DNA from: Tubiluchus corallicola
Taxonomy: Eukaryota; Animalia; Priapulida
Length of the DNA: 64,000 bases
Assembly: GCA_030141605.1 (NCBI GenBank)
Contig: JAQGDQ010000138.1
Span: 186,001 to 250,000 of the forward strand
Reading direction: 5' to 3'
Shown here piece after piece: positions 2,889 to 64,000 of the stretch. Both the position numbers and the translations under genes were made by a program. Positions within the stretch are counted from its first letter, which is position 1. Every line of letters starts with the position of its first letter. The notes beneath the pieces are model-generated. The model ran no database searches. It was not told where the DNA came from and was given only the letters and a program-made list of their open reading frames with translations.

Positions 2889-5800
2889 GTAGCAGAAGAT
2901 ATACTCACGTTAGCCTACGAAAGTGGAATCAATATTTTCGATACTGCTGAAGTCTACGCTCAGGGAAAGTAAGTAATGAACTTAGTGTAGGATGACGCAA
3001 CAATTTATTTAATCTGATAAATTTTATGATTGCTCATACGACTGTTGTGACCGCAATTTGCCATAAGAGAATTCATGAAATTTTATTAATGGCACCAACC
3101 AATGTAATGGGTTAACACATGGTGAATTTGTACATCTAATGAAGCGGGACCCAGGCCTTGTGAAACACAGGCAACCAAGCAACCTGTCATACAAGTAGAA
3201 ATATGACTCTCTAGTGTAGCTAGCCTATTAGTTTTCAATTATATGAAGTTGTCATGAAACGTCACTATTAAATTGACTTTGCGCTTGTCTTTTATAGTGC
3301 GGAAGCCACGCTAGGAAAAATACTGAAGAAAAAGGGATGGCGTCGTTCCAGCTACGTCATATCCACGAAAATTTATTGGGGTGGAAAGTGAGTTCATTGT
3401 TATAAAAACAGAAAAATAATGCTAGACGACAGTATAAACTTTAAACTAAGACCATATACAGTTTGATGGATTTGTAGTTCGTATTTTGTACTACTTGTAT
3501 CATACACGTGATTTAATGAATGGACTGATAGATGGATGATTGAATGAATAATTAAGTGAATGAGTGAATGAAGCGAAGGAACGAAAATGACTATACAAAC
3601 AAATAATTTGCTTAATTTGAGAAACACAGCCAAACTGCCTCACAAACACTGGGTTATTTTTAGAATTCATCAATGCTTAGACCTGCAATGAATATATTAA
3701 CAAGTTTGCAATCAATAATAGTAGCTGTTCCGTGGCAATTATCGCTGCATAAGAGCGGTGTTTTCTGACGCCAAAGCGAACTTTTCAATGTTGTTAGTAT
3801 GCAATGGGCACCTGTAGTACAACTCGCAGAGGCTGAACTGAGTACACAGGTGTTTTAAAAACATCTGTTCTTGAAAGCTGAAATGCTTATATATATTTTC
3901 TAACTAAACTTTTGCAACGTTGATTAGTCGACATGTTTAACAAAAACCTTCTGAAATCTTTTCCTAAACATTGAGATACCGAGAATGTTTGGCTTCCGTG
4001 AGTTTTAATTTGGCCTAAGTTAGGTCTAGTTCAGCGAGTTATAATAGCCGAATGGTCATGTGATGTGTATGGCGATTGAAAGCAGGAATGGTTAGTGAAT
4101 GGATGAGTGATTGCCGGGTTCGATATTCGCGTTGGGTGATTTCATTCACCTTAGTAATTTGGCTATTTACCTTGTGGAAGGACCATAAAACACCTCTGCT
4201 GGTTCAATATCTTATGAGATGCATCGGCTTGATGAACCTAATTTCGCCACACCATTCACGTTGAGTATGCCTGGCTTTTGCAACAATATAAAAAAATTTG
4301 TTAGTGTTCAATACTGTTTATTCTATTTCAGAGCCGAGACTGAGAAGGGTCTTTCAAGAAAACACATAATTGAAGGTTTGCTGTATGATTTATTTTTGTG
4401 TTTTTCTTAGTTTGCCAAAACAAGTTATTTTATACTTGTTCACACTGAAGTCAATGAGCCGATAGTTACTGAAACTGTTTTCTGACTTTTCTTGGACTTT
4501 TTATGTACCCTTCTTTAGATTGACTTATTTCAGAGTGATTATTATTTGTTGCTGGAGGAAAAGCAGACCTATCACATTCTTTCATTTTCACTTTCACGGT
4601 GTGCTTTGCAGTGTGTTTTTCATAAGCTGTATTACTTTTCTTTATAGGTTTAAAAGCCTCTTTGGTTCGTTTAGACATGGAATATGTAGACATTGTGTTT
4701 GCCAACAGGCCTGATCCATATACACCTATGGAAGGTAATTTCGACTATAACTTTGCTATGGCTAAGCATCCAATGCTATTTTCGTTATTAATCAGAAGCG
4801 AATCGTTATATTTTCTAAACAAGGCTTATATAGCACTTAGGTCTTTTTCACTGGAACACGGAATAGCAAAGGATGTTCTTTACCAGCCTTGCAATATCCA
4901 ACATCAGAAATTTTCCATAACGTATGTGTGCATGACTCGTATGTCCAACAAGAAAAACCTACCTTGTGCCCACAACTCTTATTTATTTATTGTTATGAAC
5001 AGCATTTTTGGCAATAAAGTTTCATTAAACTTTGTAACACAGCGCCAAGTGCAATTTCTTGTTAAACAAAAATCGTTTAAAACAACGATATTAAGTCACC
5101 ATGAAATAATGTGAATGAGTCGTGGGTGATAGTGCTTGAATTTCAGCAGACACTTTCACTTGCGAGGATTTAAAATAAAAAGTGAAATGAGAATAATTGT
5201 TATCAATTAGACCTGATTGCTTTTGGAGAATATATTTTATTAATCTTCATCATCAATAATTATTAAGAGTAGTGCTCTTAAACTTCAGAAAAACTCACAC
5301 AGGAAACATATCAAAGAAACGTAATTTCACTGCCAGATGAAAGAATGACTATTATTTGACCAAAAGGATTGGTCAAAATAGTATCCAGCACAGGCAAAGC
5401 TCTCTATACAATCCAGGAAGCAGACACTTTTGAAATCTACAGCTGCCATCATGTACAGAAAAAGGGAAAGTGACCTACCTTGCTGAATCTCAGCCTGATG
5501 GTATGCACCGTGATTAACATCGCCACCACTGTCATGATGGTGGTCGTGATCACCACTACGGCCATAACCATCGTTATATATCTTTTCTATACTGCGTTGT
5601 ACCATACACCACCTAAAACTTGAATTTTTAGCTATCAAGAATTTAGATGGTCTCTACTGCCTTTTTGATAAAATTATATCAGTAGCACCAGCAACAAAAG
5701 CAGATGTAATAGTGAAAGGGTGCTGCTGCACTGTTGCAATTCTCCTTGTTTTCACTATGACGGCTTGGCCGTTTCTATGTTTATATCAATTTATTTCACT

Positions 5801-7179
5801 CCAGCAATACTTATACAATACATCAACATACAACATGATTAGAAAAAAATTAATATAGGTAAAAAACATGATGAAGTTAAATTAGCCAACCTTGAAAAAT
5901 TTGCTTGTTAAGGTGGCACGAATACTAAATACTAAATACAATAAATACTAAATGGTAACGAACAATGCAACACCATCACCTTTATCTATTGTCCTCTAAA
6001 TGACGAGTTATAAGCAGGTAAGTTAAACGAGGAATCAATGATATCCCTGAGCCAAGTTTCAGACAAGGCAAGTATGGACAAAATTGTGCTTAACATCTGT
6101 ACATAAGCGAAAAATAATCAAAATTTGCATTTATACTTTTAAGATTTAAATGTATAATTGATAAAGGGTTGCTGTCTGATATACTGTAATTATTACGAAA
6201 CATTGAATTGAATTCGTCGATATCATAATATTTACTACCGTTTGGAATGTTCATGTTGTTAAAGAAATTTGTATCTGCATTGACTTTGTCTAGGTATTCA
6301 GTATTATGATTGATTAGGTTGCTGTTATCTTCAAATAAATTTAATTTAAAGGCATTGCAGTCAATTATATTAGCAGTATTTATATACCTGGCGGCCAGAA
6401 AAAATCTTCATTATCGAGAATCGTAGTAAAAAGAAATATATCTGCTAGGCAGTTATGGCAGAACCAGGCATCACTATCATTAGATAATTTAGTAAAATCA
6501 GAGATTGTTAGACGGGAATATTTAAGATGAATCCATGACTCACAACAGACACAATATACTCCATACTGATTAGATTTGACAGGTTTAAAGCAAGTAGAAC
6601 AAGGAGAACGAACCACGGTCATAACTGTGTAGAAAGTACAGGAAGAAAAACAATAACAACAATAACAGACAAACAACCAACAACAACATATCACAGGATA
6701 ATGTACAAAGGGAAAGAATCAACACAGTCAAGGTCACGAAGCTGTTGAAGCTGCTATTACTGTTTCTGATGTTCATAAGAAGGTAGTCACTTTTGTTATC
6801 ATTAATTCACTACATTACTGTTCTTACAGAAATAGTGCGAGCTTTTACACATGCCATAAACCAAGGTTGGGCGATGTACTGGGGAACATCAAGATGGGCG
6901 CCTATGGAAATCATGGTAAATTTTGTTCAGTATTTTTGCATAGGCTAACACTGTGTCATATTTAGAATGCATCCATATACATCTTGTAAGTGAACTCTGC
7001 AGCTTTTAGGAAATACATATGAAGTAGAAAAATGATGAGAATTATACTTTCATATTCATGATAGCATTTAAGTTACATATGTGGATACACAAAGATGACG
7101 ACATTAATGGCGATTATAATGATTGTAACAATTATGATTATTATTATTATGACGACAATGATAACGATGGTGGATTTGA

Positions 7180-7213
<34 letters not shown>

Positions 7214-8496
7214 GGTGGTGGTGGTGGCGACGGCGGCGGCGGCGGTGGCGGTGGTGGTGATGATGAATGTTGGTGTATGCATCATGTTCTCCACCAAATT
7301 GTTAATGCATTTTGATCACTCTAGTTTGTATAGAAGTACCAAATATTTTAATCTTTTAGGAAGCATATTCTGTTGCACGTCAGTTTAACCTCATACCGCC
7401 AATAGCTGAGCAAACGGAATACAACCTCTTCCAAAGGGACAAAGTGGAGCTTAATATGTCCGAGCTTTTCTATAAAATCGGTAATAGCTTTGATTACTTA
7501 TAGATGGACAAACTAATTTTCACTAATTTGTGCAACTGCTTGCTAACTGTGTACGTTATACGTATGGTTATTCCATCACCATAGCTTGAAAATTTTTTAC
7601 CATAGCTCAGCTGTGTTATAAAGCAATTCTGACAAGTTTTATAAGCAACATAACATAACATAACATAGCCAGAACAAAAGCAACAATGTGAAAATCCGCT
7701 TTTGCAAAGTACAATGAGGATAAAGTCAAGTAAAAAACGAGGCTTATCTACTTACCAACATCAGGTCAATTAAGGTCAAGGTCATGGTAAGCTTTGGTAA
7801 AGACTATGGTTTAGGGCTAAAGCTCAGGTTTTATGGCTTCTGTCCCAAAGAAGTCATTTGAAATCTATCAATGGTGTCTGCTAGTCGACTCGCTATGGAA
7901 GCACAGATGCCAAGTCACTGACATATTGCACCAATTTGATCCTCCGCATCAAGCTTTTAACTAATCCCTAAATCTGGTGAATCAGTTTTGGAATCTGGAG
8001 ACTATGACTGACCTTTCTGTTTTGCAGGAGTTGGGACAATGACGTGGTCACCACTAGCTTGCGGCGTCCTAACAGGAAAATACGATGATGGTGTACCACT
8101 GTATTCACGAGCTTCTCTCAAGGTAAAATAATTATATAATTACACCGTCAGCAAAACGAAATTATATCATTTTTCTGTACTGCATTTAAAAGTCAACTAA
8201 TAAACAAAAATTATAGTAATATATGCACAATAAATTCATTTTTGCTACACAATATTTCCACCAAGACCTGTGATGATATTCTGGTATATTTTAAAGCAAA
8301 TGTAACAAGGGAGACCTTTTTTCGGAAAGATTTATTTTGTCTCCTCCTAAAAGAGGTTTTATGTGCTTTACTTTTGCTTTAAACTTTCATGATTATGATG
8401 ATAACGGTGGTGATGGTGATGTTGATGATAACGACGATGACAATGACAATATCTACACGACAATGGTAATAGTGGTGATGGTGATAGCGATGATGG

Positions 8497-8528
<32 letters not shown>

Positions 8529-8568
8529 CTGATGCTGATGCTGATGCTGATGCTGATGCTGATGCTGC

Positions 8569-8621
<53 letters not shown>

Positions 8622-11600
8622 CTGATGATGCTGATGATGATGATGACACCTGAAGAGATTACCACAAGTCGTGGCTGAAATATTGTGTAATTATATGAGA
8701 GCAAAATCCTTCTGTAATAAGTAAATACGTCACCAAGTACTGAAAATTGTTATGGCAAAAGTAAAGAATAAAACTTGTTATAATATTCAGGGGTACGAGT
8801 GGCTAAAAGAAAGAATACTCAGCGAGGAAGGGCGCAGACAGCAGCAGAAGTTGAGAGAAATGTCTGTGATAGCTGATAAGCTGGAATGTTCTCCTGCCCA
8901 ACTGTGCATAGGTGAGTAGAATCTAGTGTTGAGAAGTGAATTTAATGCTAATAATTTACCGAGTCCTCGGGCAGTCAAAATATTAAATCCCCATGAATTT
9001 TATGAACTTATTTCTGCTTTGCACTCATAACCAAAAAACTGAATATCATTTTATCTTATCCAGTCTCAACTCACACACTTCACCTTAATTTTTCTGACGT
9101 AATCGAGCCACTACTTCATCTAATCAAACCTCCATGAACGCACATTATCTCATCTCTCTTCATGTAATCTTAGCAAACCTTTGCTCACTGTAACTTATAA
9201 TACCAATTTAATCGTAGAAAATACCTACTTAAATCTCATCTCATCTCGCCTCATCTCATCCCACTCATAGACCACCTCTCATGTCATTTCACCTAAGCAC
9301 TTTTCTCAAGTTGTTTCTGTCTCAGGTAATACAACCCGATTTACAGTACAGTAAGTTAGTCAGTACTTAGCCTAGTTTCAAAATAAGAACAGAGTCCATT
9401 CCACTTATAAATCATAGACTCAAGTTTTGTCTGTATAGGGGCTAGATAACTAGATAACTCAATGTAAATCGATTACAAATTACGTCAGTGATGGTTATAT
9501 AAAACTTTACAACTCTACAGGACTTGATTTTTTTTCTTAGTGTAGATATTATCTGGTTGTCTGTGTTTTCAACACAACTTGGCGCTTAGAAGCATCACCA
9601 ATTGAACAGTTGCATAGTTTTACAAGCTAAAATCAACAAGTCAAAAAAGTAGGCCTCTAATTATAATGTTAACCTACATAATCATCATTTTAGACTCTTA
9701 TTCTCAGAAATTCTTCTAAATCTGAAAATTTTCAGCAAAATTTAATAGTACACGTATTACAACCAGTCGATACTGAAGCTCTTACCAACTTTCAGGGATA
9801 AACATAACAGCTTTTAGGTATTCTCTTACGATTTATTTGTTTGTATTCCAAATTATTGTTTCTTATCCTAATACTTAAAGGTTATAAATGTAAACCGACC
9901 AGTTAGTCTTCAAACTTCTTTATTAAAAAACAGTTTTCTGATAATTTTATTGCTTTTCAACAGCTTGGTGCCTGAAAAATGATCAAGTCCAGTGTGTGCT
10001 TCTGGGAGCAACAACTCCTGAACAGTTGTATGAAAACATTCAAGCACTTCAGGTAAATAACATCACCAAGATACAAATCTTTAATTGTAATGACAATAAT
10101 TGTTTTGGAAATTGCAAAAAGCTACAACCAGTAACTATCATTCAAGTAATTTGTGACGATGTGTAACAAGAGTCGATCTTTTCATCTTGTAGTCTGTAGT
10201 CATCTGTATTCATCACGGACAGTCAGTTAGCCCGGACAAATTATAAAAATGAATGGACGGATGTACAGATGAACCGATGGATGATGTAAAGCCTGCAAAC
10301 TAAAATTTCATTGTTTCTTAGTTCACACTTCGATCCTATAAAGTTAAAGTTACATAGCTACTACCGCCATTTTAAAAACGTAATTGTTAATTTGGTCCAT
10401 AATTGAAGATTTTTGCTCTGATAAACAAGTAATGGCGGTACCCTGGCGAGAAGCATTGTTATTGATCATTTGCTATCAAGTGGTGTGCAGAGCTGACATT
10501 TTAAAATGGCTAACGGATCTTAGTTTGAGTGCCAAATTGCATAAAATTTTGCCACATCCTACTAACATAATAAAGATAGCCCAAGGTCAGATTTCAGTTC
10601 AAATGACTGTGTGTTTTGTCTGCGTCTTATATTTTCCTATCTTTTACCTACAGGTTGTGCCAAAACTGACTGCATTCATAATGGCAGAAATCGACTCCAT
10701 TTTGAACAATAAGCCAATAATTCGTAAAGAGCCATCCAGCAGGTGAGTATTCAAATTGAACAAAATATTAATTTTTTAGAAAAAAAACAAACATTATCCT
10801 CCATTTTTACTATGTCTTCCACGTTAGTGAATGCTTATTAAATCGACCGCTGAGGCCAGCTTTCAAACAAGGTTATTACATGGGGCATGGGGCAATAGTA
10901 GTCGGGATGGCGGCGGCACCATTGTCTTGGAGCATTTGCCGTGACGTTAATGTTAATCCACAGAGGCCCAAACTATTCAAACTTGGTGCTTGGGTTTGCA
11001 CTGCTGGGAGATAGGCTTCACTATAAACTGAAAAGTGAACTTGACTTTGATCTTGTTTAAGCTAAAAAGGTTAGTACTACTACAAAGCTGTTCGATTTGC
11101 AGGTTTTCAATTCACTCTTTTTTATCTTCACATAAGTTTAACCTGTAAAATTGTTGTGTAGAAGAACATCAGTATTATAGCTTTCAAATGGTATAATTGA
11201 ATTAGAAATAGGAATATTTTCCTATAGTTTTTCTACAGAATGCTCGTTTGATGGATAACCTAATTTCAAAAGCATTTTTTTAATTTGAAGAGCTGCACAG
11301 ACCTTTAACAACAACTACTTCTAGTTTTTGTTTTAGCGTTTCGGATATTTATCCTAATCTTGATTCCTATATCCATTAATAAATAAGTAAACAATATTAA
11401 ACTGTACAGATCGATGTATTACATAAATTTCGCATTCTACTTTCACGTGCGCTAGGAATCGTAACGTGCTCGTTACGTTGCATCAAATTATTTCACTCCT
11501 GTCAAATTAACACTTCATTATAATAGTCAGCAACAGATGCTGTATAACCTAAAAATATTTCTTGACCGGTCAATAACTTCCAGCAGGCAGTCTTATTTTA

Positions 11601-12470
11601 AACTCAGAAGAAGTTGACCTTTGTAAGAGAGGTGGATTCTTTCTATTGATTCTGGCGAGTAATATCACTTGATCGGTTGTTTTCAATTATGAAAGCATGT
11701 AAAACCTTCTTCCCAGTATACCTTACCACTGTCGCAATTTTGCCGTTTTATTCAGTCTAGACACTGCCCATTTTGAGTCCTGCTCCAGAGCAAGGCTGTA
11801 GAGAAAGGACATTTATGGTCCAGCCTACCCTATTGCTGATAATGACTTTTGTATCCACTTGCACTTGTCTATATAGCAAAAATCCATCTGCCATATTATA
11901 ATCACCACAATATTAAAAATTATTACAACTCAGTTTGCTTATATAGTTCTCTTTTTGTATATATGTATATACAGTTATATATATATATAATATAACTGTA
12001 CATAGTTATATATATTTTGTGAATCGCTTTGTAACGTTATGTGCTTGTTATTACTAACTATGAGTGTAATGTATACTAACTTGTTTATCTGAGCTGTAGC
12101 GTTTACCCACCAAAATTAGTAATGAAAGACCGAAGCGTTGAAATATAAACGAATGCGTTATAACAAGCTGTGCATGTTCTTAATGAAATCAAATTCATGT
12201 ATTACTGCTGTGATGCATTCGTTTATATTTCAACGTTTCAGTCACTCGTTGTTAATTTTAGGAGTAACCACTCATTCATGACCTCAATGGGGTTCTGTGA
12301 AAGTGCAGTTAAACAAGATGCGAGAGATGTACCATCTAGTAACCTGTACACTATGCCATTGTATTCAGTTGTCATACATAATAAAAAGTATTTAACAGTT
12401 ACGTGTTATTTATATATCAATTATATTACATATCAGTTTATCATGAGTGCCTGTGATATTTCGCAGGTGA
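2889..12470 (+). CDS. KCNAB2: Voltage-gated potassium channel beta subunit (Kvbeta, aldo-keto reductase family; KCNAB2/Hyperkinetic-like), 5'-partial
   Basis: Exons with GT-AG borders and consistent phase: 2889-2968 ([26 protein letters not shown]), 3298-3387 ([21 protein letters not shown]), 4332-4375 ([14 protein letters not shown]), 4648-4734 ([22 protein letters not shown]), 6830-6915 (AMYWGTSRW), 7360-7480, 8028-8122 (TWSPLACG), 8791-8911, 9964-10052, 10654-10742, 12467-12470 (G+TGA). The AKR catalytic D/Y/K/N residues are retained. The N-terminal exons (GLGTWVTFG region) were not found and probably lie upstream of the window. Confidence 0.95.
4040..4280 (+). mobile_element. Putative Pol III SINE fragment (tRNA/5S-like head)
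   Basis: TAGCCGAATGG (A-box-like), then GGTTAGTGAATGGATGAGTGA (resembles the 5S internal promoter region), then GGGTTCGAT (B-box-like). A related fragment lies at ~28780-28860. Confidence 0.35.
6121..6700 (-). mobile_element. CR1/L2-type LINE 5' fragment (PHD finger plus start of APE endonuclease) in a Kvbeta intron
   Basis: ORF 6380-6694 has a PHD-like pattern (CSTC...[13 protein letters not shown]...WFCHNC). Further along the minus strand (~6121-6175) reads [17 protein letters not shown], the typical opening motif of an APE endonuclease. Frames are disrupted. Confidence 0.7.
7093..7266. repeat. Compound trinucleotide microsatellite (GAT/ATT/GGT/GGC)
   Basis: Visible (GAT)n(GGT)n(GGC)n tract within an intron; explains the low-complexity ORFs at 7058-7388. 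Confidence 0.95.
8388..8646. repeat. Compound (GAT)n/(GATGCT)n/(GCT)n microsatellite
   Basis: Directly visible, intronic; source of the poly-M/L/S/I ORFs. Confidence 0.95.
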
Positions 12471-12578
12471 CTAGAAATGACGCCGGCACCACAGGAATCG
12501 AAGAACTCGGGGGGTCGCCGGCGGGGACAAGGAAGGACGAATGGCCAAAATCAGCCGTCAATCTGCGTGACGCAGTAA
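12468..12578 (+). CDS. Predicted stop-codon-readthrough C-terminal extension of Kvbeta ending in CaaX (CVTQ)
   Basis: TGA (12468-12470) is followed by CTAG. The open frame 12471-12575 reads LEMTPAPQESKNSGGRRRGQGRTNGQNQPSICVTQ, then TAA (12576-12578). The segment is GC-rich relative to its flanks and has a stem 12481-12490/12513-12523. Confidence 0.55.
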
Positions 12579-12881
12579 CAGAAGCCGTCAGCAGATTCTA
12601 CCACAAACACTGTTAGGAAATGTTTCTGGTATTGCCATCACCAGCGCATTGAAACGGTGAGATTTCTTTGGAAATGGTGCTGACAAGTGAAGAACCGCAG
12701 TCTACTACGTCAGTGTTTTACTGGGATCTGCCATATAATTTAATTTCTCTTTCAAAAGAAATCAATGCACCTTCATATAGTGGGAGCTTTTTGAATCTCT
12801 GGGTCCTTTGCATGTTTGTATGAGTAGTTCAGGAATAAGAATATTCGCCCTCACTGTTCACTATTCACTTATTACTGTATA

Positions 12882-12914
<33 letters not shown>
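12882..12914. repeat. (ATG)n microsatellite in the probable Kvbeta 3' UTR
   Basis: About 11 ATG/GAT units visible. Confidence 0.9.
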
Positions 12915-12915
<1 letters not shown>

Positions 12916-13871
12916 CTTTATGTATATAAATGCAATAACCGATGACTAATCCACAAAATTTCTCTCTAGTGCCTTGAGATTTTAAGTGCCACATTTACAA
13001 ACTCGCGTATTTGACACGAATTCGACCTCCAGCGTTATTGTGAGATATACATGTTGCAGACGCTGAATTCACCTCTGTGGAAGCACCTGTAGAACTTAAT
13101 TCTGAGAACTGAATAATAACTATGCTCTTTATTTATGACTGTATATTACTCTTCCATGGTGCATAGATATGAACCCAACTCTATTTGTATTATTTAAACC
13201 ACAAAAGTTGTTTTTATAATATTATAGTCATTAAGCTCTAGCTACATCATCTTAATTTCCCGACTTAGCATGTATGGCAATGAAAAGCATTAACTTGATG
13301 TTTATGTCATTACTCTAAAAATAATTTTATTTAATAACAAAAATCGCTTTGATAGTTTCTAGTGACTTAACTATGTAGCTAAGTAACAAGTATGCTGAAT
13401 TTTTCTGAAACAATAGAAAGAAAATGTGCTGGCATTTTGCCAACATTTTGAGTAGGTCATCGTATTTTTCAAACTAGAGTTGTAGGTGTGTCAATTTGTT
13501 GTGACCTTGCATTTGTATCATATCTTAACTAACGTTTCTACACGCAAAGCCTATGTCCTCTTTTTTAAATAATTCAAGTAATTTTGTCCATGTTATCTTC
13601 ATTTGTGTTGCTTCAAGTTGCGTATAAAGTAAAATTGTTACTACCTAATTATAATTATTTAAACATCAAAAAGTTATTATAATTATTGCTCTTTTAGCTT
13701 GTGTCTATTACAGTCTCTATTACAGTTTATAATAGTCTATATTTTGTGAAACAACAATTAATCTAACAAAGGATCAGAGTTGAGCTTTATGTCATATACA
13801 TATAACTTGTTTAATTCTTTGATTTGCGTGTAATATGTCACCGTTCAAGATTCCTCACTTTCTACTTTTTG

Positions 13872-13885
13872 CCAGTAGATGGCAC
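13872..13885 (+). promoter_or_regulatory. CTCF-like binding motif
   Basis: CCAGTAGATGGCAC closely matches the CTCF core consensus; motif match only. Confidence 0.4.
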
Positions 13886-16800
13886 TCATGACAGTCATGC
13901 AGAATGTACAGAACGCAACACGAATTGAGGCAGGCTTGCCTACGTTTTGTTAAAATTTATAGTGCTTTTATACTCATTTTCAATCTTAACTACAACACAA
14001 TTTGTTAAGCCATACAGACAACAGCAAGTACTAAATTTAATATATTTATTCACTACTACGTGTCACAAATGTTGAATTTTTCAGTTCGTTTTAAAAGCAT
14101 AGAAAAAAGCAACCGCCAAACCTGAAAACTGTAAAATCATCCTCGTCATATGTATAGCAGGATAACAATACCTACCATAAAGTGCAACGGCTAAATCGCA
14201 TGAAGGAAAATGTGGAAAAGCATTCAAATTTAATTTCCTCTGTATAGTGTTCTTTTGTGGTTATTCCGAAATGCTTTTAACTGGCTGCTACAAATTTCAT
14301 TTTTTAAATTTGGTGAATACTCTGCATAATGTTATTATACACTTTTGCACATAATATTAATTCACTATTGTCTTAAGACTGTTTCGTGATCATTTCTCGC
14401 ATTCTTTCAATCATTTTAGTTTTGCATTATTTAAAATCTGTATCCTTACAGTTGAAATTTGCAACAATAAAATTATCAGGTTTTATTACGGTATATAATA
14501 GTACTCTGGTTGACTTGGAATCGCATGGATTTTGTAAATTCATATATTAGTTTTGTTGAAATCTCCTCGCGTTATAGAAGTAGGCTATTAACAGGCAACT
14601 TCTGTCTTCGCCCAAGATGCGTGCTGCTTTGTTGTCGGTGCTGTTGGCGTCATTGGGAAAAGTTGATCAAGGCTGAACAACGATGACGGGTAATTAACGA
14701 GTAATTATTTCTAATTCATTAATTCGCAACACATTATTGCCTTATTGTCAAAAATGCGTCTTGCAAAAATCCTTTCTGCATAAAATAAGGTACACATTAA
14801 AAGCGTAAAGGAAATACACTGAGAACGAAATAAAGTATAGTAACAAAGAAATAAAAAAGGCAACAGGTGGAAACCGTGGAATTAACAACTTAACAGCGAT
14901 AACGAAAATAATAATAAATAGCGGTAGTACGAGTAAAACCTTATTTTTCATAAAAAGTTCTGTGCCATTTTAACAAACAATCACTCTCCAAGACAATTTC
15001 ACCCAGCGTCTATAGACTAATAATATAACGGTTTTAACCTAAACTATAATAACTATACATACGACGCCACAGTAATGACGCGAAGTACAGTATTTAATTA
15101 TACAGCAATAAAATTCACTACAATCAATAAACATGTGACCAGTACAAAAATTTAATGACAATAACAGAATAATTACAACAAAGGCAGATGTTGTTAACCT
15201 GCCATTTTCTTACGCAAATGACCATAATAAAATTATTTTATTTACTAAAATAAAATGGTAAACGGAATTTTTAGAAAATATTACTGTGAGCAGACATCAT
15301 TGGGGTTCAAAATTTTACATAAATTTGTTACTTCTTGGAGATGAACGTTTAAGACACGTAGGTTATTGTAAAACATTTTATTGTGTACAGGTATTTATAA
15401 ATGAATCGAGACGTTTTAAATAACGATTATACTGTAACTGTTTAATTTATATGAGCAATGAAAATCATGTTTAGTGATAAACCAGTATAGTGCATAGGCT
15501 AATCATATAACTGTTTTTCATTTGCTTTTTGTTTCTACTTATACAAAGTGTTACTAGAATAGCTTTGTAAATTTTGTTCAAATTGACAGTTGTTAAATTT
15601 ACGAAAAAGGTAATGCTTGCGCATAAGTTGTAAAAACTTTCTGGCACAAACCGCGTAGCAAAATTATGTTGACAATAAAATAAAATAAGCTGTAAAAAGA
15701 AGTTTAAGAGCTCTCCATTTGCAGTAAAGTTATGCTAGTTAGTTACTAAAGGATTGAAAACAACCCTGTCCTATCCTCTTCTCCCCTCCCCTTCCCTTCC
15801 GTCTCCTCTCCTTCCTCTCCCACCTTCACTCCTCTCCTATGCTAATCTATTCTACTCCATTCTATTTCGTTCTGTGCTTCTTGTGTTTTTGTTCCTTCAA
15901 ATCTCACCTGATCTAATTCTTCATTCTCGGCCGACGTGGTCAATACGAAAACTGCGAGTCACATGTTGCTTTTCATTTTTCAATACAGTTTCCACTGTGG
16001 TAAAATTTTGGCACACAATACTTGCGCCTATGCGGCTTCTAGCTCCGTGCTAGCGCCAGCGCTGAATGCTCATAATAATTGAATACTACGCTTGCAATAT
16101 GTGCGCCTTGTGTCGGTGCCTACTGCCTGCCTGGGCGTCGCAGAATGGGATTCGATACCAAAAGATTAAAGAAAAATGGTGATGTGTAACCTGTTCACTG
16201 TGATTTACAAAGTCAAGCTTTCTAGCAGACACTGTGCACCTAATCAAGCGATAGCTCCTTGGTGCAATACTTAATGTTTGTTAAATGTTATTAATGTGTT
16301 AATAGCATAAGTCTAACTTCAAACACAATGTATTGTTAATTACTGCTGTCTTACGACACTGTTTTTATAATCGTCCGTACAGGTTAATAATAATTAAACT
16401 TAATTAATGAGAATGAGCACAATATAAACTCTACATAAACGCAACATGTATACATAACGGAAACGTTTTTATTGCAAGGTGACTGTAATGCCGCTACAAA
16501 GCAGGTTTACCTGCCTTAATTAGCTCTGTTATATAACTGTGTTTATTGCACACTATAGTAGCCTGCTGAGAATTTGTTATATCGTCGTAAGAGGTCTACT
16601 ATTGCGACAATGATGATAGACCACAACCCGTATCAAAATTATAATTTGATACCCGAATCACCCAGAACCAGGAAATTAAGAGAGCTGTTAATAATAATTG
16701 CATCAGCTAGCGTTATTAATTTATAAGCTTAATAGGTAAACGTTATAATACTCCTATGTATGGCCAGGTTGTATAGTTATTGATCAAAGCATATTGATTA

Positions 16801-17851
16801 GCCTATAGCTAGGCTAGGGTATCTGGAGCGAATGAGTTTTTGTGTAACAGAGTGCATGCGCGATTTATAAGCAAGGGACCAAACTAATAAGCTGTGTTTT
16901 CATGGTTTGATGAATTAGTATATAGTGACTATTTCTCCAAGTGCAGTAAAGTTGGTGACGGATATGATGTAAGACCTTTGCGGTAGTTTTTTACTTTGAA
17001 CGTATCTTTGTCCTCGTGTTTTAAACATGTCTAAAATGAAACAAAATCGATTTAAAACACCAATTCTAAACACCAAAAATTTAGAAACAGTAAAGGTGTT
17101 TACACGCGGGTTCAACAACATCTAAAAACCTGGTGGAGGTTTAAAGATGGAACCTATAAACTAAATGCATCGACTGGATGTGTAATTTCAGAGATGTGTT
17201 TAGCAAAAAAACACGATTAGAACACGTCAGTTTTATATCCTTAAAATTTGCTTCATTTAGTGACATAACCTCTTTGGTTTTCTAGCTAAAAAGATAGCAA
17301 ACGCGCTTTTAAATGCGTTTTGAATTTTTATAAACATAACACTACAAATGGAACAAATCTGTCAATTTTTACCAAGTTCTTAAACTTGTTTAAAAGGCGG
17401 AGTCAAAGTTACGGTTCGAAATGCATTCATAAGCTAAAGCTTTGCGGTATACAAAAATAAATTCTGTGACTCGAGGATGTAACTATCCTACGTTGCTCAG
17501 TAAGAAATCGTGCGTTTTCAAAATTTTGTCACTGATGTCACATTTTAGTTTCGAGATGTGCTATGATCGATATGCATTCGCGCCACACATAGCAGGTGAA
17601 ACAGACTTCTTGATACAAAGAAACAACTTAAACTTTGACAAATTAGTGTTTGCATTCGAACCTTGTGAGTTTAGCTACCTAAACAAAGTGCATAGCAGCT
17701 AACGTGTTCCTCATCATGTAAAAAGGAGATAATTATCGAACCCACGACGTCCTAATAATTGATTTCAAATATTAATTTATTGTTTCTAATCATAATATCC
17801 ATCAGCTAATCAATGCCGTCGTGTAGTGATTTGATCACATCAAACTGATTA

Positions 17852-20800
17852 ATGGAATCTGCTTTGAAAGGCCCAGTTCTGACACTCCCAAGCTTTAATT
17901 CGCTGCAAGCGGAGTTTGACTCGCTAGTGGAAAATTCCTTCATCATCAACAAAATTGCCTTGGTGTACGAAGATCGATTCATAACATTCAAAGAGCTGGA
18001 CTACAAGTCCAGTCTGGTCGCACGTTTTCTACAAGAATCTTACGAAGACGATTGTATTCTAAAAGGACCGCAGCACATGTGGCGGTGTAAGAAAATTGTT
18101 GCTATCTATATGCGGAGAAGTCATCATCTAGTCACATCCCTGGTTGGCATACTCCGATCTGGTGCCGCGTATCTACCTATAGGCATAACATGGCCAAAAG
18201 ACCATATAAAGATTATACTAGACGAAGCACGGCCATTTTGTATCATATCAGATCACAAAGATGGTGTAATAGCTGATGTTGCTGGTAACAGTCTAAATCC
18301 AATTGAAGTGTTCACGCTTGACGATGTTGACAAGCATGTTCAACAGTCAGTACAACTTGGGCAAACACATAAGAGGTACACGAGTCACTCTAGTGGCGAA
18401 TCAGATGTGGCATGCGTCCTTTATACTTCTGGTAGCACCGGTAAACCAAGGGGTGTAAAACTAACTAATAGCAATATCCTTAATAGGTTACAGTGGTACT
18501 GGACAACCTTTCCTTTTGCCAAGGATGAGGTCATGTGCTTCAAGACTGCAATTACGTTTGTGGATTCCATGACGGAAATATTCTCTGCACTACTTCAAGC
18601 TTGCCCGCTAGTGATTGCACCAGAAGGAATTATCCAAAATCCAAAAAGTTTCATCACATTCTTAGGCAAACACAGGGTAACACGATTAACTATGGTTCCT
18701 TCATTACTACACATTATTCTTATGTATCTGAGCATGGATAAATCTGTGAGACATCATTTGGTCCAGCTCTGGCTCTGGGTCTGTAGTGGTGAAACACTGA
18801 TGCCTTCACTTGTTCGCCAATTCTATAAGATATTTAGACCTAACAAAACTTTGTGTAACTTTTACGGAAGCACGGAGCTTACAGGTGACGTCAGCTACGA
18901 GCTGTTCAACAGTAAGTCTGACCTCCTCAATAAGATCATCAGCGACAAAGTTTCCATCGGAGTTCCAATCAATAATACTACTATATACGTACTGACTGAG
19001 AGCTTGCATAAAGTTAAACAACATCACATTGGAGAAATATTTGTTAGTGGAAGAAATGTTGTTCCAGGCTACCTTGCAACAGAAAACAACCCGAACTTTA
19101 TGGAGAATCCTTACTCTAGGAACGAATCTGATAAAGTTTTATATAAAACAGGTGATTTTGGTTGCGTCATACATGGCCGATTGTTCTTCGAAGGTAGATA
19201 TGACTCACAAGTGAAAGTTAGAGGAAAACGGATAGACTTGCACGAAATAGAGTGTGCAATTCACGAGATTCATGGAATAGATAATGTTATAGCATTGTGC
19301 CACGGGTCAGATGCACAATCTACAGCAATTGTTGCTTTTTATACATTGCGAAAGTCAGCGAATCTACAACCGGAACAGATTAGAAAGTCTCTGATGACGA
19401 AACTACCATCGTTCATGATTCCAAATGTGCACAAGATCTTACAGATTCCACTTCTACAAAACGGAAAGGTAGACAGAAAGAAATTGCTTACCAAATATGT
19501 TCAAGAGAGATTTAGCTCTCCAAGCCCAGTTGAAGCCACTAGCGATACACTGGATGAAGTTGAAAAAGTTGTTGCACATGTTGTTAGAGACGTATTAGAC
19601 ATTCCAAATGGTGTCTATATACAACAAATGAATTTCTTTAATCTTGGTGGCAACTCTTTGAATGCCTTGACCACAGTGCTGAACTTAACCAAAACAGGCA
19701 TACATATTGATATTGACAGTTTCTTGCAGGCCAGTACAATAGCTGACATTGCAAAGCATGTAGAAACAGTCAACAAGGACAAGTCTATATGCTGTGGTTA
19801 TAAACAAACTGAATCGGAAGATTATGTTAAATTAAAGAAAACAAACTCTTCCAGAAAAACTACAGAAGAATTCTTTTTTCGGATCATTGCTTTACATGAA
19901 TCAAAGCAGCCAGCAGAATTGATTAATGTGTTAGCTAACAGCTTTAGCCATAAGAATCCACTAGATATTGCAGTGGAAAACTACCCCGAAACGCATGCAA
20001 CTATGCTCAGAACACACTGGAAAGATATTATTAATAGCAAGCTTTCTCTCGTAGCTGTGGACAAAAACAGTCAGATCATAGGAGGTGTGGTATCTTTTGA
20101 TCTTTTTGATGAACCAGTTCTGCAACTACCAGAAAAACTGGTTCCGATTTTTGAGTTGCATGAAGAGCTGGAAGACGCGTTTCGAAAACAGATGAAGGAT
20201 ACTAATACCAGATGGCTCCATAATTCACTTATGGGTACTAGCTTGCAACTGACGTTTCAACAAAATGTTAAACTAGTTAAAGCCATGGAAGAAGCAGTAT
20301 TAAACCTCGCTGAATCTGAAGGATATCATGGCATCTTCACTTGCAATAGCAATAAACTAAATCAGGTAAGTCCTCATTTTTACTGCTCACCACTACTGCT
20401 GATATTGTAGCTAGTGTTAGTGCTGTTGCCTCTGTTTGCCAATGCTGGTGTCGTTGATAGACGCTGCTACAGTACAATGTCCTTTACTATTCGTACACAA
20501 CACTTAAAAGTGAGTGTGTACCATGCACACGCAAATGTTTGAATGAAATTAATTATCAAGGGTAGCTGACTTGATGACTTTTTAGTCAACTCGCTACCTT
20601 ATTTGGTTGAGGTTTGAGTTTACTACTACTTTAATTAACCAATTTACATTGTATATATGTTCACATATTTTTTGTTCATTGTAATCGTTCCTGAAATGCT
20701 AAGAGAAAATCATTTTGATATGATATAAAAGTGGATTGGATACCGAACGTCGTAAATCATATTTTTTATTGCAGGATATCTGTGAGCACTTTTTGGATTT

Positions 20801-34840: not shown

Positions 34841-36845
34841 TTTTGCGATTGCGATTGCGATACTCGACTCTCTCCACCTATCCGAGGCGGGCACCTTTAT
34901 AGGGTGCAAAGTCTCTTCTTCTTTAACGCTGATCTTTTATTTGTCTTTTCCAAGTTTAATGTCTTTATTTGTCTTTATCCTGTATTCCATACATTCGTTC
35001 ACTAGATTTCTAATTTCTAGCAATCCTTCCTTTTCACTGTTCATTAATACTTCTGAGTTCAAAATTTTTTTCCATTCTCCATATCTGTAACATCTAAGCA
35101 TATGTTCAGTAGTGTCATCATCTTCCTCACACACTGGGCATAATAACTGATCCTTAAACTCATTCTTGTAGTTCCCCTTAACTTTAATCATATTCAGTCT
35201 TATTTTCAATATATCTTTAACCTCTTCTGGCTTGCATGTGTCTATGTAATTTTGTCGTTTCCACTCGGTATGCCTTAAAAATCTTAATTTAGTGCTGCTC
35301 CTGCATTTTTCTGCACATTCGCTCTTTATACAACGTTCAATCTTATTCTTTATTTCTTTCTTCCATTCAGACTTTTTCATGACCTTCACCCTTTCTTTAT
35401 TAGCATCTATGGTATATATTTTTGCAGTCTCAAATACTTCATTATACCATGACCTTTTGTGTACACTGTTTATTTGCATTTCGAGTATCTCTGTTGCTAA
35501 TCTCTTTGGTTTACTAATCAATAAATTCCGATAGAACATCAATCTCCTATAGTTTACTTTATGTTTTAGAGGCCATATGCCTATTTCAGTTACTAATCCC
35601 CAGTATGGCATTGATTCACTAAGGTTAAATAATGTTTTTAAAGCATTTGCTTGAATCATTTCTAATTTCTCCCAATCAGTTGTTGTCAAATTTGACCATG
35701 TCTCAGAACTATTTAGCACTGCACTCACTGAAAGAAGCTCGTACAGCATTAGTTTTACCCCTATTGAGCAATCTCCCACTTTCAGCTCACCTCCTATTGT
35801 ATTGATGTAACTAATTATCGTTTTGTTTTTCCCGGTTCGTTTTCCAAACATTATTTCATAACTACATTTTGTATTTATCCAATCTCCCAAATATTGGTAT
35901 TCCTCTACTTCCTTAACCTCTCCGTTCCTTAGTGACTCACATAATTCTGGGACCTTTTCTTTCGTGTCATGTTAGTTCTCATATATTGTGTTTTCTGTAT
36001 ATTGAATGATAATCTTTTGGTTCTTTCAATTTCTTGACAGTTCTTAATCATCTGCTTGATTATAGTTTCTTGTCCTATTCCGACAATATCGTCAATGAAT
36101 AATAACATACCCACATGTATATTCCTGCCCATTACAGTCCCTGTTGTCACCATCTCATTAATCCGGTTTATTGCAGCACAACATAGTAATGGTCAAAACA
36201 CTGTTCCCTGTCGGACTATTTCATTTATTTCTATCTGGTCTGTTTTTCCCAATGGTGTTTCTATAACTATTTCTGCAATTTCATTCAGTTCATATATCAT
36301 AAATATTTCTCCTGGTGATATGCCCATCCTCCATAATTCTGTCAATGCATCTTTCAACCACAACTTATCAAAACACTTTTCTATGTCACAAAAAATTATG
36401 TACACCTCATTTTTATAAAACCTGTTATACTCTAACATTGCCCTCAAGGTGTACAGATGGTCATAGACCCCTCTGTTTTTTCTTCCGCCACATTGATGTA
36501 CTCCTATGTTTTCTTCAAATTTAACTATTATTCTATTTTTGATCACTTTTTCCATTAGTTTACTGAAAATATTTGTTATGAACAGCCCTCGTCTATTTTT
36601 CATCTCTTTCTTGTCGCCTTTTCCCTTATAAATTGACTTTATTTTCATTTGGGCCCATTGTTTCGGTATTTTCTTTTGCTTCATTATTTCATTCAGCATT
36701 GCTGCTATACTATCAATAAATCCCTTCCCTGCTTGTTTGATCATTTCATTCTTCCATCCTTGCATGTCTGGAGCCTTTTTTATTTTTTAGTGATCGAACT
36801 GCTTCATTCACTTCACTGTTAGTAATTTCTTTTACTTCCTCCTCA
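34841..36845 (-). mobile_element. 5'-truncated non-LTR retrotransposon (LINE) RT ORF, frameshifted
   Basis: ORFs 36193-36765 (W...IYKGKGD...NRRGLFITN...QCGGRKNRG...DIEKCFDKLW...VRQGTV), 35929-36153 (LLFIDDI) and 34937-35890 (GDWIN...CPVCEEDDDTTEHMLRC knuckle) form one broken RT. The 3' end has a GCACC-CTATAAA-GGTGC hairpin and a (TCGCAA)n tail. Clade not assigned. Confidence 0.9.
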
Positions 36846-51191: not shown

Positions 51192-54100
51192 TTACGAAAA
51201 ATAGGGATACACGGTCCCGGTCTTCTTCCGCTTATTTTGGATTGGTCTAATTACTTTGCCACCTGAAATTTAAGCGGAAAAATAATAATCAATAAAGCCA
51301 TTTTCTGATGGCCTCATCATCAGCAGCATGATGACGAGAGTGGATGTGACTAGGTTCTAATCATTCTTAGAGACAGCTTTGATATGCTCAATAATTCTCT
51401 GCCATAAATCGGCGCGCCTATAATCCCTCTTGTAAACAAACCAAACAGGACACATTTGAGCTCCTATTTTACCGCTTCCTCCTCTATTATGTAGTAAATC
51501 AGGCGTTATAAGACACAATTACATTTATAGATCCAAGATCCAATACTATCCCACTCTCGCCTTGCACCCTATCTCACTCTTCCTATTCTCGCGCTCACGG
51601 CTGCAGTGTATTGGACGAAACCAGCAATGTACGGGACGACACCACCAATGTACGGGACGAAACCAGCAGCGTACGGGGCAAAACCAGCAGTGCCATAATT
51701 TATGACGTGTTATCTCTCCTTAGTCCAGCAGCGTCTTAATAACTTCACTTTCTGACAACGTGATCTTTATTCTGAGTTTTTCATTTTCCCAACTTCTGAC
51801 TGTCTCTCTAAAAAAGCTATACTGTTAGCTTTCAGAAGATGTGCTTGCCTTTGACTGCCTTCGCACACTTTTCACAGCTAAGGCTAATTATTAAGCTGCA
51901 CATCTATTTCAGGCTCGTCTCTAAAGTGGCTAACTGTGCGCATTTACGCATCAGGGTACCATTTGCCTCTCTGTCGTAATGTTATTATACATGTATTCAT
52001 AATTTTTCATTTCTCACATAAAGCACCATAGTACAGAAACGCCAAAACGCAAATATAGGTTCGAGATGCGAATTTTTATATTGAATATTGATGAATAACT
52101 CGATACTTTTTACTGTCGGATTTCTAATATACTTATCGCTACTTGACACGTATCGGCACGGTTGTGTAGAAACTAACGGAACAGTTGATGTAGAAACCAT
52201 AGTGTAGTACTAGTGCATAGCATAGTATAGTTGTAATTATAGCCTTATAGGTGTATTTAGTCCTTGAATTTAAACATGACGTCACAAATTTGCAAACCAG
52301 GTAAAGCCAGAGCTCAGCAAGGTTGACGTCAGCATAGTTCATGTACATGTATAGTGTAAATGTTGACGTGGCAAAGCAGTTGAAATGTGTAAATTATGAA
52401 GTTAATTTTGTATTTGCTCTTTATTTGTATTTACCCGACTTCGCGCTATTTAATGACTGAGGACTACTAATTCGGATACGATGTAAGTAAATTAGTAAAT
52501 TACACTACTCCTATAAATTTATTGCTCTGATTCATGTGCTTTAAGTGCAACTGTGATGTGCATTAAGTGATTTCGGTTAATTAGAGAAGTCTTACGTTCC
52601 GACGTAATTGTACTCAACTTCTAATGTGCTACTCTTTATTTGATATTTGAATTTTTTTGTAAATTCCAGATGAAATAAAAACGCTATATATAACATATAA
52701 TACTGAAAACTAGTACAGTTCGTGGTCATGTTGCTCTTTCAATACCAGTCCCCCCCCCCCCAACAACTACCAGCTCGTGGCTTTGCACATACAGAGGTTA
52801 ATTTTGCAGAACTGCTCTTTCACAATGAGAATGTTATGAATGTTTACAAAAAAGAGTTATGTAGAATTTAATAACGAGTAAAAATTATAATCTTACCAGG
52901 CCGACCTGGTTCTCCTGGTTGTCCTGGGACTCCTGGCAGTCCTATATTTCCCGGTATCCCTGGATTTCCAGGAGGCCCTATGTCCCCTTTCATACCCTTT
53001 AGTCCTTTTCCAGTTCCTGGTTCACCTGGGTCACCTTTAGATCCCATTTGTCCAGGCTGACCAGGTGGTCCTGGTTCACCATCTCTGCCATCCTCTCCTG
53101 GAATGCCATCACTTCCAGGCCAGCCATCCAATCCTGGTCCTCCTGGCGATCCCTTGGGACCAGGCCATCCTTTCTCTCCACGTTCTCCTCGCAAGCCATC
53201 TCTACCAGGTTGACCAGGTTGTCCTGGATTGCCATCTTTTCCTGGAATTCCAGGAGGACCTGGTTGGCCATTAAGCCCTGGAGCACCTACAGGACCTGGT
53301 GCGCCAGTATCACCAGGAGTTCCTTGGGTTCCGGGTGTACCAGGTGTGCCATCGGTTCCTGGTTGCCCTGGTTCTCCCTGAGCACCATCTCTACCATCCT
53401 TTCCATCAGTACCATCCTGTCCATCCGTACCTGGTTGTCCAGATTCACCAGGCTCACCAGGTGGTCCTGGTAGTCCGGGTGGACCAATTAAACCAGGTGG
53501 ACATACAGGGCATACACCAGGTTGTCCAGGATTTCCTGGAGCACCTGGATTTCCTGGAGCACCAGTATTTCCTGGAGCACCAGGAACTCCCGGTGGACCT
53601 GAAGGCCCTGGAGGTCCTGGCATTTCTGAAATGAAAACATAATAACGGCTATAAATTAAGGGTTTGAATAAAAACTCATTTAAAAATTAAAAAGGCAAAC
53701 GTCACAGCTCTGTAACTGCTATTAGAGCTGCAGCATAAATTTTGGAGCATTCTGGCGTTCTTAGGGTTATTGTTAAGAATGTGCTTTTGTGCTTTTTTTA
53801 TTAATCGCTAATTACTGATCCAGAAGAGATTATAGTTTTTGCCATTTTAATGTAGTTTAATCATAGATAAGAATACCGTATTTCCATTCCTAACATATAG
53901 AAACTGGCTCGTGAGTGATCAAATTCGGAGTTATCGTTGCAAAACAATTGCTTTTTAAAATGCCGTTGGGTCGGCACTTTCTGTAAACACTGGAAAAATG
54001 TGGGAATCAGTGTACTAGAAGAAAATATTTAAAGATGCGATGGATTTAATCAGCTCTGCTGTTATGATCCTAAACTTCGTGTAAGACTCATAAGTGTAGG

Positions 54101-63400: not shown

Positions 63401-64000
63401 AAACACTCCCTGGAGACTTTGTGCAATATTGACTGTTTGGCTTGTAGTGCGGTGCTGTATGCCACCTCACCATGTACAGTACCACTTGTGTACCCCCCCT
63501 GTGCGAAGCCATACTGTGTAACACATCGCCGTGCCCGCACAATCATGCACCGCATCGTCGAGCACCGCGTCATTGTGTACCACAGGGCGATACACAAATG
63601 CGTGGTACACAACGAAGCGGTACATGACAAGTCGGTACACAGTGCTGCGGGACATAGCGAGGCGATATGCGACCCATCGTACAGTCGAATGTGCAGGAAG
63701 TGTCACAGCGTTGCTGTTACCAATGGCTTACCAACACGTTTTGATGTTGTAGCCTGCCTGTTTTGATGATACAAGCTACACCACGTAGCATAAAAGACTT
63801 ACCTACTATATATGCAAATATGATTTTATGTACGCATTTTATGGCACTAAATTAGTAAATCGGTATGCGCTGTGTTTTGTATATTTGGCTGAGTGCTTCA
63901 AAATTCTTAACAACTTCTTTTATGTTTCTACTTGCCGAACATGCCTCATTGCGTTATTTAATATTTGTGAATATAATATAGGTTTTCTTCTAAAAGAATC
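59302..64000. repeat. Segmental duplication copy B (runs off the window end)
   Basis: Matches 54515-58442 with scattered substitutions, extra blocks at ~59428-59550 and ~60703-61285, and a longer (CAT)n tract. Confidence 0.95.

Follow-up and report, generated by a model that had tools for sequence, protein, structure and literature searches.

A UGA-CUAG stop followed by an open frame with a terminal CaaX motif in a Kvβ gene, and the same layout in distant protostomes

The window, i.e. the whole 64-kb stretch of DNA that was analysed, carries a gene for a Kvβ protein (2889-12470, +), the beta subunit of Shaker channels with an aldo-keto reductase fold. A search with a single exon returned the Logan protein P0001 (336 residues), whose cluster mate P0002 aligns to ten window exons. 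Nine upstream coding exons were placed by tblastn of P0002 at 2889..10053 (+; approximate span), with PF00248 matches on three of them, while the initial ~35 codons were not found by this search within the 64-kb window. P0001 matches PF00248 with an E value of 1e-60, P0002 matches solved Kvβ2 chains with an E value of 1e-166, and Kvβ chains are the closest solved relatives. Asp, Tyr, Lys and Asn residues play a catalytic role in Kvβ, and the corresponding motifs are intact in the window exons, where the words DTAEVY, TKIYW and FAN align to Kvβ2. To judge from its sequence, the product would bind NADPH and the T1 domain of Shaker-type channels. The best named relative of the window protein is a chiton protein (72% over the last 137 residues), and in a quick version of the Kvβ tree the window protein pair falls among spiralians, on a long branch (0.39) beside the chiton. 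Since this last placement has a support of just 83, we term the protein spiralian and no more precisely than that.

Several other features share the window. An almost intronless frame of 853 codons (17849-20410, +) combines AMP-binding, phosphopantetheine-attachment and C-terminal domains, and is presumably an ebony-type animal NRPS. On the opposite strand lie a broken LINE-type retroelement, one piece of which matches RVT_1 (34937-36786, -), and an exon of collagen triple-helix repeat (52868-53686, -). Finally, two near-identical blocks with duplicated frames (56374-58133 and 61923-63766), located ~5.5 kb apart, correspond to a tandem duplication or a repeat.

The 3' end of the Kvβ gene is of particular interest. 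The last full coding exon (10654..10742, +) finishes with AG, the first two bases of the terminal Arg codon. It is followed by a final GT-AG intron (10743..12466, +) with the donor CAGCAG/GTGAGT at 10742 and the acceptor TTTCGCAG/G at 12466/12467, and the terminal exon opens with the G that completes Arg, directly followed by the TGA stop (12467..12470, +). The splice from 10742 to 12467 had been proposed in a sequence-only reading of this DNA and was borne out, both splice sites being in place and the junction being found in one RNA-like contig. This junction evidence comes from contigs of two runs, X1 and X2, neither of which is on record as RNA, the RNA label of X2 being a tool's guess; X1 holds 0.25 of the words searched and X2 next to none. 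A single contig of run X2 (441 letters, depth 73.9) falls within 12250-12875, at 12463-12539; its loose end matches the end of exon 10654-10742 but for two synonymous differences. The junction is thus seen as a contig loose end and not as a listed joint, the two exons not being found in one stretch. Coverage by X1 is limited to 12783-12875, outside the tail discussed below, and its contig departs from the window sequence before 12783, as another allele or a copy of a 3' UTR repeat would.

P0001 and P0002, which match the window exons, both terminate at the same Arg as the window gene. When the intron is left unspliced, the donor also gives AGG TGA, followed by GTA, and the terminal exon contributes no residue; splicing therefore alters only the stop context and the sequence behind it. 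The last intron contains polyadenylation-type words (AATAAA at 11378 and 12380; ATTAAA at 10837, 11396 and 11912), which are common in AT-rich DNA, and transcripts ending inside it would encode an identical protein and lack the leaky context. Another frame, of 49 codons (12467-12616, +), starts with the first base of the terminal exon and has HKHC at its end, with no evidence of use. Skipping of exon 10654-10742 into this frame was considered and rejected, as it ends without a CaaX motif and the contig joins from 10742.

After splicing, the main frame ends AGG TGA CTAG, with TGA at 12468-12470 and the readthrough-permissive CTAG at 12471..12474 (+). Behind it, 35 in-frame codons are open (12471..12575, +), 86% of the encoded residues being disorder-promoting; they end with the CaaX motif CVTQ (12564..12575, +) and a second stop, TAA (12576..12578, +), exactly as the sequence-only reading had it. 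Its remark that this segment is GC-rich in an AT-rich locus also stands, since a GC content of 0.60 is reached by 0.15% of the 105-nt segments in the 64 kb. A predicted hairpin (12481..12523, +; -20.4 kcal/mol) starts 10 nt past the stop and folds as had been described. Over the 60 nt after the stop its z value is -2.21 and 4/200 shuffles fold as well, while over the whole 112 nt folding is not special (z of -0.55). The extension also includes a run of six G (12509..12514, +), one letter shorter in the X2 contig, and an Arg-rich patch with four Arg (12516..12536, +). No Pfam match was obtained in this tail or in the two related tails (L001 and L040) presented next, and exact look-ups of three extension peptides in the protein collection gave no match.

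The same layout is present in distant protostomes. Relatives seen as nucleotide sequence come from a metagenome scan for Kvβ, limited to the best 80 of 157 matches, most of which resemble bacterial genes. An annelid-like locus (L001, tree support 88) reads AGG TGA CTAG followed by 53 open codons ending CSLQ, and a springtail-like one (L040, tree support 100) reads AGA TGA C followed by 70 open codons ending CKTH; outside arthropods, L001 is the one orthologue directly seen. Among the best 80 of 157 matches, a Cys at position -4 is found in 2/2 animal Kvβ mRNAs whose terminal Arg precedes a TGA-C stop and in 3/68 non-animal-like loci, the latter share being near the background of frames in the window (153/4017). 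In the same set, four distinct TAA-ending animal relatives (L002/L003, which are identical, L004, L010 and L074) have tails of 2-16 codons and no Cys at -4, a count that omits L076, L077 and L079, cut by contig ends. The overall score of 4/77 loci with Cys at -4 takes L001 at the first of its tandem last exons, so that CSLQ is not counted. L010 and L074 resemble rotifer proteins, and the TAA-ending animal relatives indicate that the CaaX tail is apparently dispensable in some lineages.

The layout of the tail thus appears to be conserved and its sequence not, as the tails of the window, L001 and L040 align poorly (21% and 29% identity). An alignment of orthologous last exons had been proposed as a check; in these relatives TGA-C and the terminal CaaX are kept, the tail sequence is not, and 0/4 TAA-ending animal loci carry the motif. 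The hairpin, weak in the window, is unmatched in L001 and L040, where z amounts to +0.32 and +1.20, although one is reported for fly and mosquito Hk. As for the Arg-rich patch, the earlier proposal of a second, basic membrane signal fails on conservation, since the 20 residues that precede the Cys carry a net charge of +4 in the window versus 0, +1, -3 and -3 in four relatives; a conserved polybasic signal of the K-Ras type was rejected on the net charges of these five sequences. Such a signal is not required for farnesylation itself. The lack of a conserved basic second signal makes stable membrane anchoring uncertain. A search with the springtail tail returned four proteins, none matching the tail itself, and AlphaFold run without alignment on the springtail readthrough protein gave a mean pLDDT of 36.6, too low to be informative.

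Two further features of L001 deserve mention. At 1485-1643, it contains two tandem versions of the last coding exon, the first leading to TAG without a tail and the second to TGA-CTAG with the CaaX tail; these are likely to be mutually exclusive and would offer a second way of switching the tail on or off. In addition, the stop behind CSLQ (1806-1809) is itself TGA-C, and a second readthrough would mask the CaaX motif.

In protein collections, 5/297 fetched proteins end C-x-x-x, and all five are insect Kvβ proteins carrying a CaaX tail. Isoform X2 of Vanessa (XP_047543911.1, RefSeq) ends CEIQ, 49 residues past the Arg, three RefSeq isoforms of Pieris napi (including XP_047524309.1) end CAVQ, CAFQ and CAFQ, and a Drosophila persimilis gene model ends FCLIQ. 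Butterfly Kvβ has Asn at the position of the fly stop. An Anopheles dirus model shows FCEIH 34 residues after the terminal Arg and then runs on; if collinear with the fly protein, this motif would lie no more than about one codon from where the published mosquito region of 45 codons finishes. Vertebrate Kvβ proteins, as protein sequences, end without a CaaX motif. Mollusc Kvβ models (P0006, P0014, P0016, P0022 and P0056) end in several different ways past a shared conserved position, which suggests alternative terminal exons.

Readthrough of the fly orthologue is already in print. Drosophila Hk-RD (49 codons, TGA-C) and Anopheles AGAP010067 (45 codons, TGA-C, RNA structure) are given as an ancient stop-orthologous readthrough pair in Data S1 of PMC5100048, Hk readthrough is ranked in tier 1 with an extension protein identity of 0.99 in Table T3 of PMC13278127, and the accessible part of PMC13170385 reports that the Hk hairpin yields readthrough 4-5 fold above the reference construct in S2 cells. 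The supplement of PMC4999894 describes a Drosophila Hk extension of 48 residues with a terminal MOD_CAAXbox (ELM), CLIQ, which accounts for one of the 7 CAAX rows obtained with 537 fly extensions and is a single row in 5497 motif hits. In the accessible main text of that paper, CAAX, prenyl and Hyperkinetic give no match, and Hyperkinetic is not named in the accessible main texts of PMC3840789, PMC13278127, PMC5100048 and PMC4999894. The earlier remark that no such description was known for Kvβ/Hyperkinetic must be narrowed, since fly Hk readthrough is published and the CaaX motif is listed in a supplementary table, but no stated link of Kvβ/Hyperkinetic readthrough to prenylation was found in the literature searched, which comprised few subscription papers. 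What is known is thus the readthrough of fly Hk; what is new, within this literature, is the conservation of the stop and the CaaX motif across phyla and their reading as a prenylation device.

The main result against a readthrough-to-CaaX reading is the X2 contig. It is identical to the window over 76 bases save for one base missing in the G6 run (12509-12514), and this G5 form shifts the frame after 14 tail codons towards a stop TGA at 12568-12570, with no Cys and the loss of CVTQ. A frameshift in the extension, which had been held in advance to speak against the tail, is therefore present, unexplained, in this one contig, while the window allele keeps the frame. The contig end at 12539 coincides exactly with the end of the last 31-letter word that distinguishes the two run lengths, which hints that run X2, of which a single contig was seen, holds both the G6 and the G5 forms. 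The missing G could reflect allelic variation, a sequencing error or a mistake in the assembly of the window. An old protostome readthrough and CaaX tail could then be decaying or polymorphic in the window lineage, with many alleles devoid of a prenylated form. The depth of the G5 contig (73.9) and its identity elsewhere, a window tail that is the shortest seen (35 versus 48-70 residues), the long branch of the window protein (0.39) and the losses evident in TAA-ending relatives all fit such a decay. Nevertheless, the window allele retains TGA-CTAG, the frame and CxxQ like its relatives, CxxQ being found at the end of 7/4017 window frames (0.17% of random frames). Moreover, homopolymers often give rise to one-base sequencing errors, and this difference may be one. 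We regard decay as unlikely, though deserving more credit than the alternatives considered below.

If the tail is translated, its Cys may serve another purpose than farnesylation, such as geranylgeranylation, acylation, redox chemistry or a C-terminal binding motif. CVTQ is prenylated according to 3/4 predictors and cleaved according to 2/2 (PMC9231725 supplement); in the same source, CSLQ and CEIQ are prenylated according to 4/4 predictors and CEIH and CKTH according to 3/4, CSLQ belongs to the positive training sets, and CKTH is predicted not to be cleaved. The accessible part of a yeast farnesyltransferase (FTase) screen (10.1101/2023.02.06.527295) reports Q at X as favourable, yet a majority of CXXX sequences as accepted, so agreement among predictors is weak evidence. 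By yeast FTase rules, CVTQ has Q at X and no restrictive residue. The conserved position of the Cys is a stronger argument than predictor scores. Variation at a1/a2 (V/T, S/L, K/T, E/I, L/I), the predicted lack of cleavage of CKTH and the absence of a polybasic signal leave some room for another role of the Cys, but a Cys that stays at -4 from lineage to lineage, combined with Q or H as X, is what FTase substrates look like, Q at X is positive for the yeast enzyme, and the fly motif agrees with the ELM definition of a CAAX box. Such an X would point to farnesylation rather than geranylgeranylation, and we consider a different role of the Cys improbable.

Could the extension be an ordinary 3' UTR, with a GC-rich stretch that is open and finishes with a CaaX-like word by coincidence? 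Of the window stops, 9.8% precede at least 35 open codons, and one of the 7 TGACTAG words in the window has Cys at -4; the G5 contig of run X2 would also suit such a coincidence. In contrast, Cys at -4 is found in 153/4017 window frames of at least 10 codons (3.8%), and three separate lineages at 3.8% each give a chance of ~5e-5. The same stop context and terminal Cys recur in annelid-like, springtail and several insect sequences, and the conservation of the fly extension is documented in the accessible parts of PMC5100048 and PMC13278127. Given the orthologues, coincidence is already unlikely, and we hold it to be very improbable.

Least probable of all is a route to the CaaX tail other than readthrough, whether through a different acceptor, A-to-I editing that converts UGA to Trp, or selenocysteine insertion: butterfly isoforms do have the tail as plain coding sequence, with Asn at the fly stop, and spiralian Kvβ proteins vary in their endings after the same Arg, but the sole in-frame acceptor past the stop among 10 AG sites in 12400-12580 is AAG 12535, with 6/22 upstream pyrimidines, the X2 contig joins at 12467 with no alternative letter at the stop (contigs drop rare variants), and conserved UGA-C contexts favour readthrough. 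The selenocysteine variant was rejected, as an Rfam search of 12300-15500 gave no SECIS and one sub-threshold snoRNA match on a repeat.

We consider it probable that readthrough of UGA-CUAG at this locus yields a minor, membrane-tethered and farnesylated form of Kvβ. Of the mechanism put forward initially, the leaky UGA-CUAG, the open tail and the CaaX motif gain strength from a layout shared with L001, L040, fly and butterflies, but the basic patch is unconserved and the hairpin is not matched in L001 or L040. Readthrough in the window species, farnesylation of the product and an effect on the channel are what we infer from this layout. UGA-CUAG contexts allow 1-2.3% readthrough in HeLa cells (accessible part of PMC4359377). 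By analogy with these human reporters, a level of a few percent is likely. Most ribosomes would halt at UGA and release the soluble subunit of 336 residues, equal to the predicted proteins P0001 and P0002. A minority would insert a near-cognate residue, aided by CUAG and perhaps by the hairpin, and continue to TAA, so that the readthrough product would consist of the main protein, one residue and a flexible tail of 35 residues. The Cys of CVTQ would next be modified by farnesyltransferase, with the disordered spacer giving the lipid access to a membrane. A spacer function could allow sequence and length (35 to 70 residues) to drift, with the leaky stop and the terminal Cys as the retained elements. 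Kvβ functions as a tetramer, so even minor readthrough would put a lipid-tethered subunit in some complexes. Such a subunit might hold an NADPH-bound reductase near membrane lipids, with or without the channel.

A protostome-wide switch from readthrough to farnesylation on Kvβ is likely. More tentatively, and with slightly less than even confidence, we propose that this switch descends from the arthropod-spiralian ancestor, with the stop and the CaaX motif kept while the spacer drifted, was turned into plain coding sequence in butterflies, is lacking in vertebrates and rotifers, and in the window species is under a second control by the last intron. Under such control, unspliced RNA would present UGA-G and produce the soluble subunit only, and spliced RNA would present UGA-CUAG and give access to a lipid-tethered redox sensor. 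According to the accessible text of PMC12043502, in which readthrough, farnesyl and prenyl give no match, sleep pressure is set by a lipid-peroxidation signal that fly Hyperkinetic stores, and Kvβ is non-membrane-integral. If the ancestral-switch proposal holds, the tethered sensor would adjoin the very lipids of which it registers the peroxidation. A function has been proposed for few readthrough tails, and most conserved examples have been described within a single clade. The Kvβ tail points to a specific function, lipid attachment, kept across arthropods and spiralians, and a hidden farnesylated Kvβ would offer a route to the membranes where lipid carbonyls arise.

Among known systems, the closest are Drosophila Hyperkinetic (FBgn0263220) and Anopheles AGAP010067, which share with the window an orthologous gene, a stop after the same terminal Arg, UGA-C, a 3' hairpin (predicted in the window) and a disordered tail ending with a CaaX motif (CLIQ in fly). 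They differ in that the window gene is spiralian, has the full UGA-CUAG and carries an unrelated tail of 35 residues, and Hyperkinetic appears in print as one among hundreds of dipteran readthrough candidates. Butterfly Kvβ isoforms (Vanessa XP_047543911.1, Pieris XP_047524309.1) resemble the window product in the position and kind of the tail (CEIQ/CAVQ), but their protein records annotate it as ordinary coding sequence with no stop to cross. The large antigen of hepatitis delta virus offers a parallel from outside the family: bypass of a stop appends a short tail with a farnesylated CxxQ end and alters the role of the protein. There, ADAR editing removes the viral stop, whereas leaky decoding of a cellular UGA would operate in the window gene. 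In mammals, readthrough of UGA-CUAG in MDH1 unmasks a PTS1. LDHB and MDH1 share with the window gene the UGA-CUAG context and a hidden C-terminal signal that generates a minor relocated form of a cytosolic oxidoreductase (for LDHB, accessible part of PMC4359377). They differ by the signal, which is peroxisomal there and a lipid-attachment motif in the window tail, the latter being also longer and poorly conserved in sequence. Drosophila Syx17 has a readthrough tail with a predicted farnesyltransferase signal, CSVQ (PMC4999894), and is the one extension with such a prediction in Table 2 of PMC3840789. It is another gene, known by prediction only, and no conservation across phyla is shown in the accessible part of PMC3840789. 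To conclude, the feature found in the window is real and would work like functional readthrough of the LDHB type, with a lipid-attachment motif as the signal that is unmasked.
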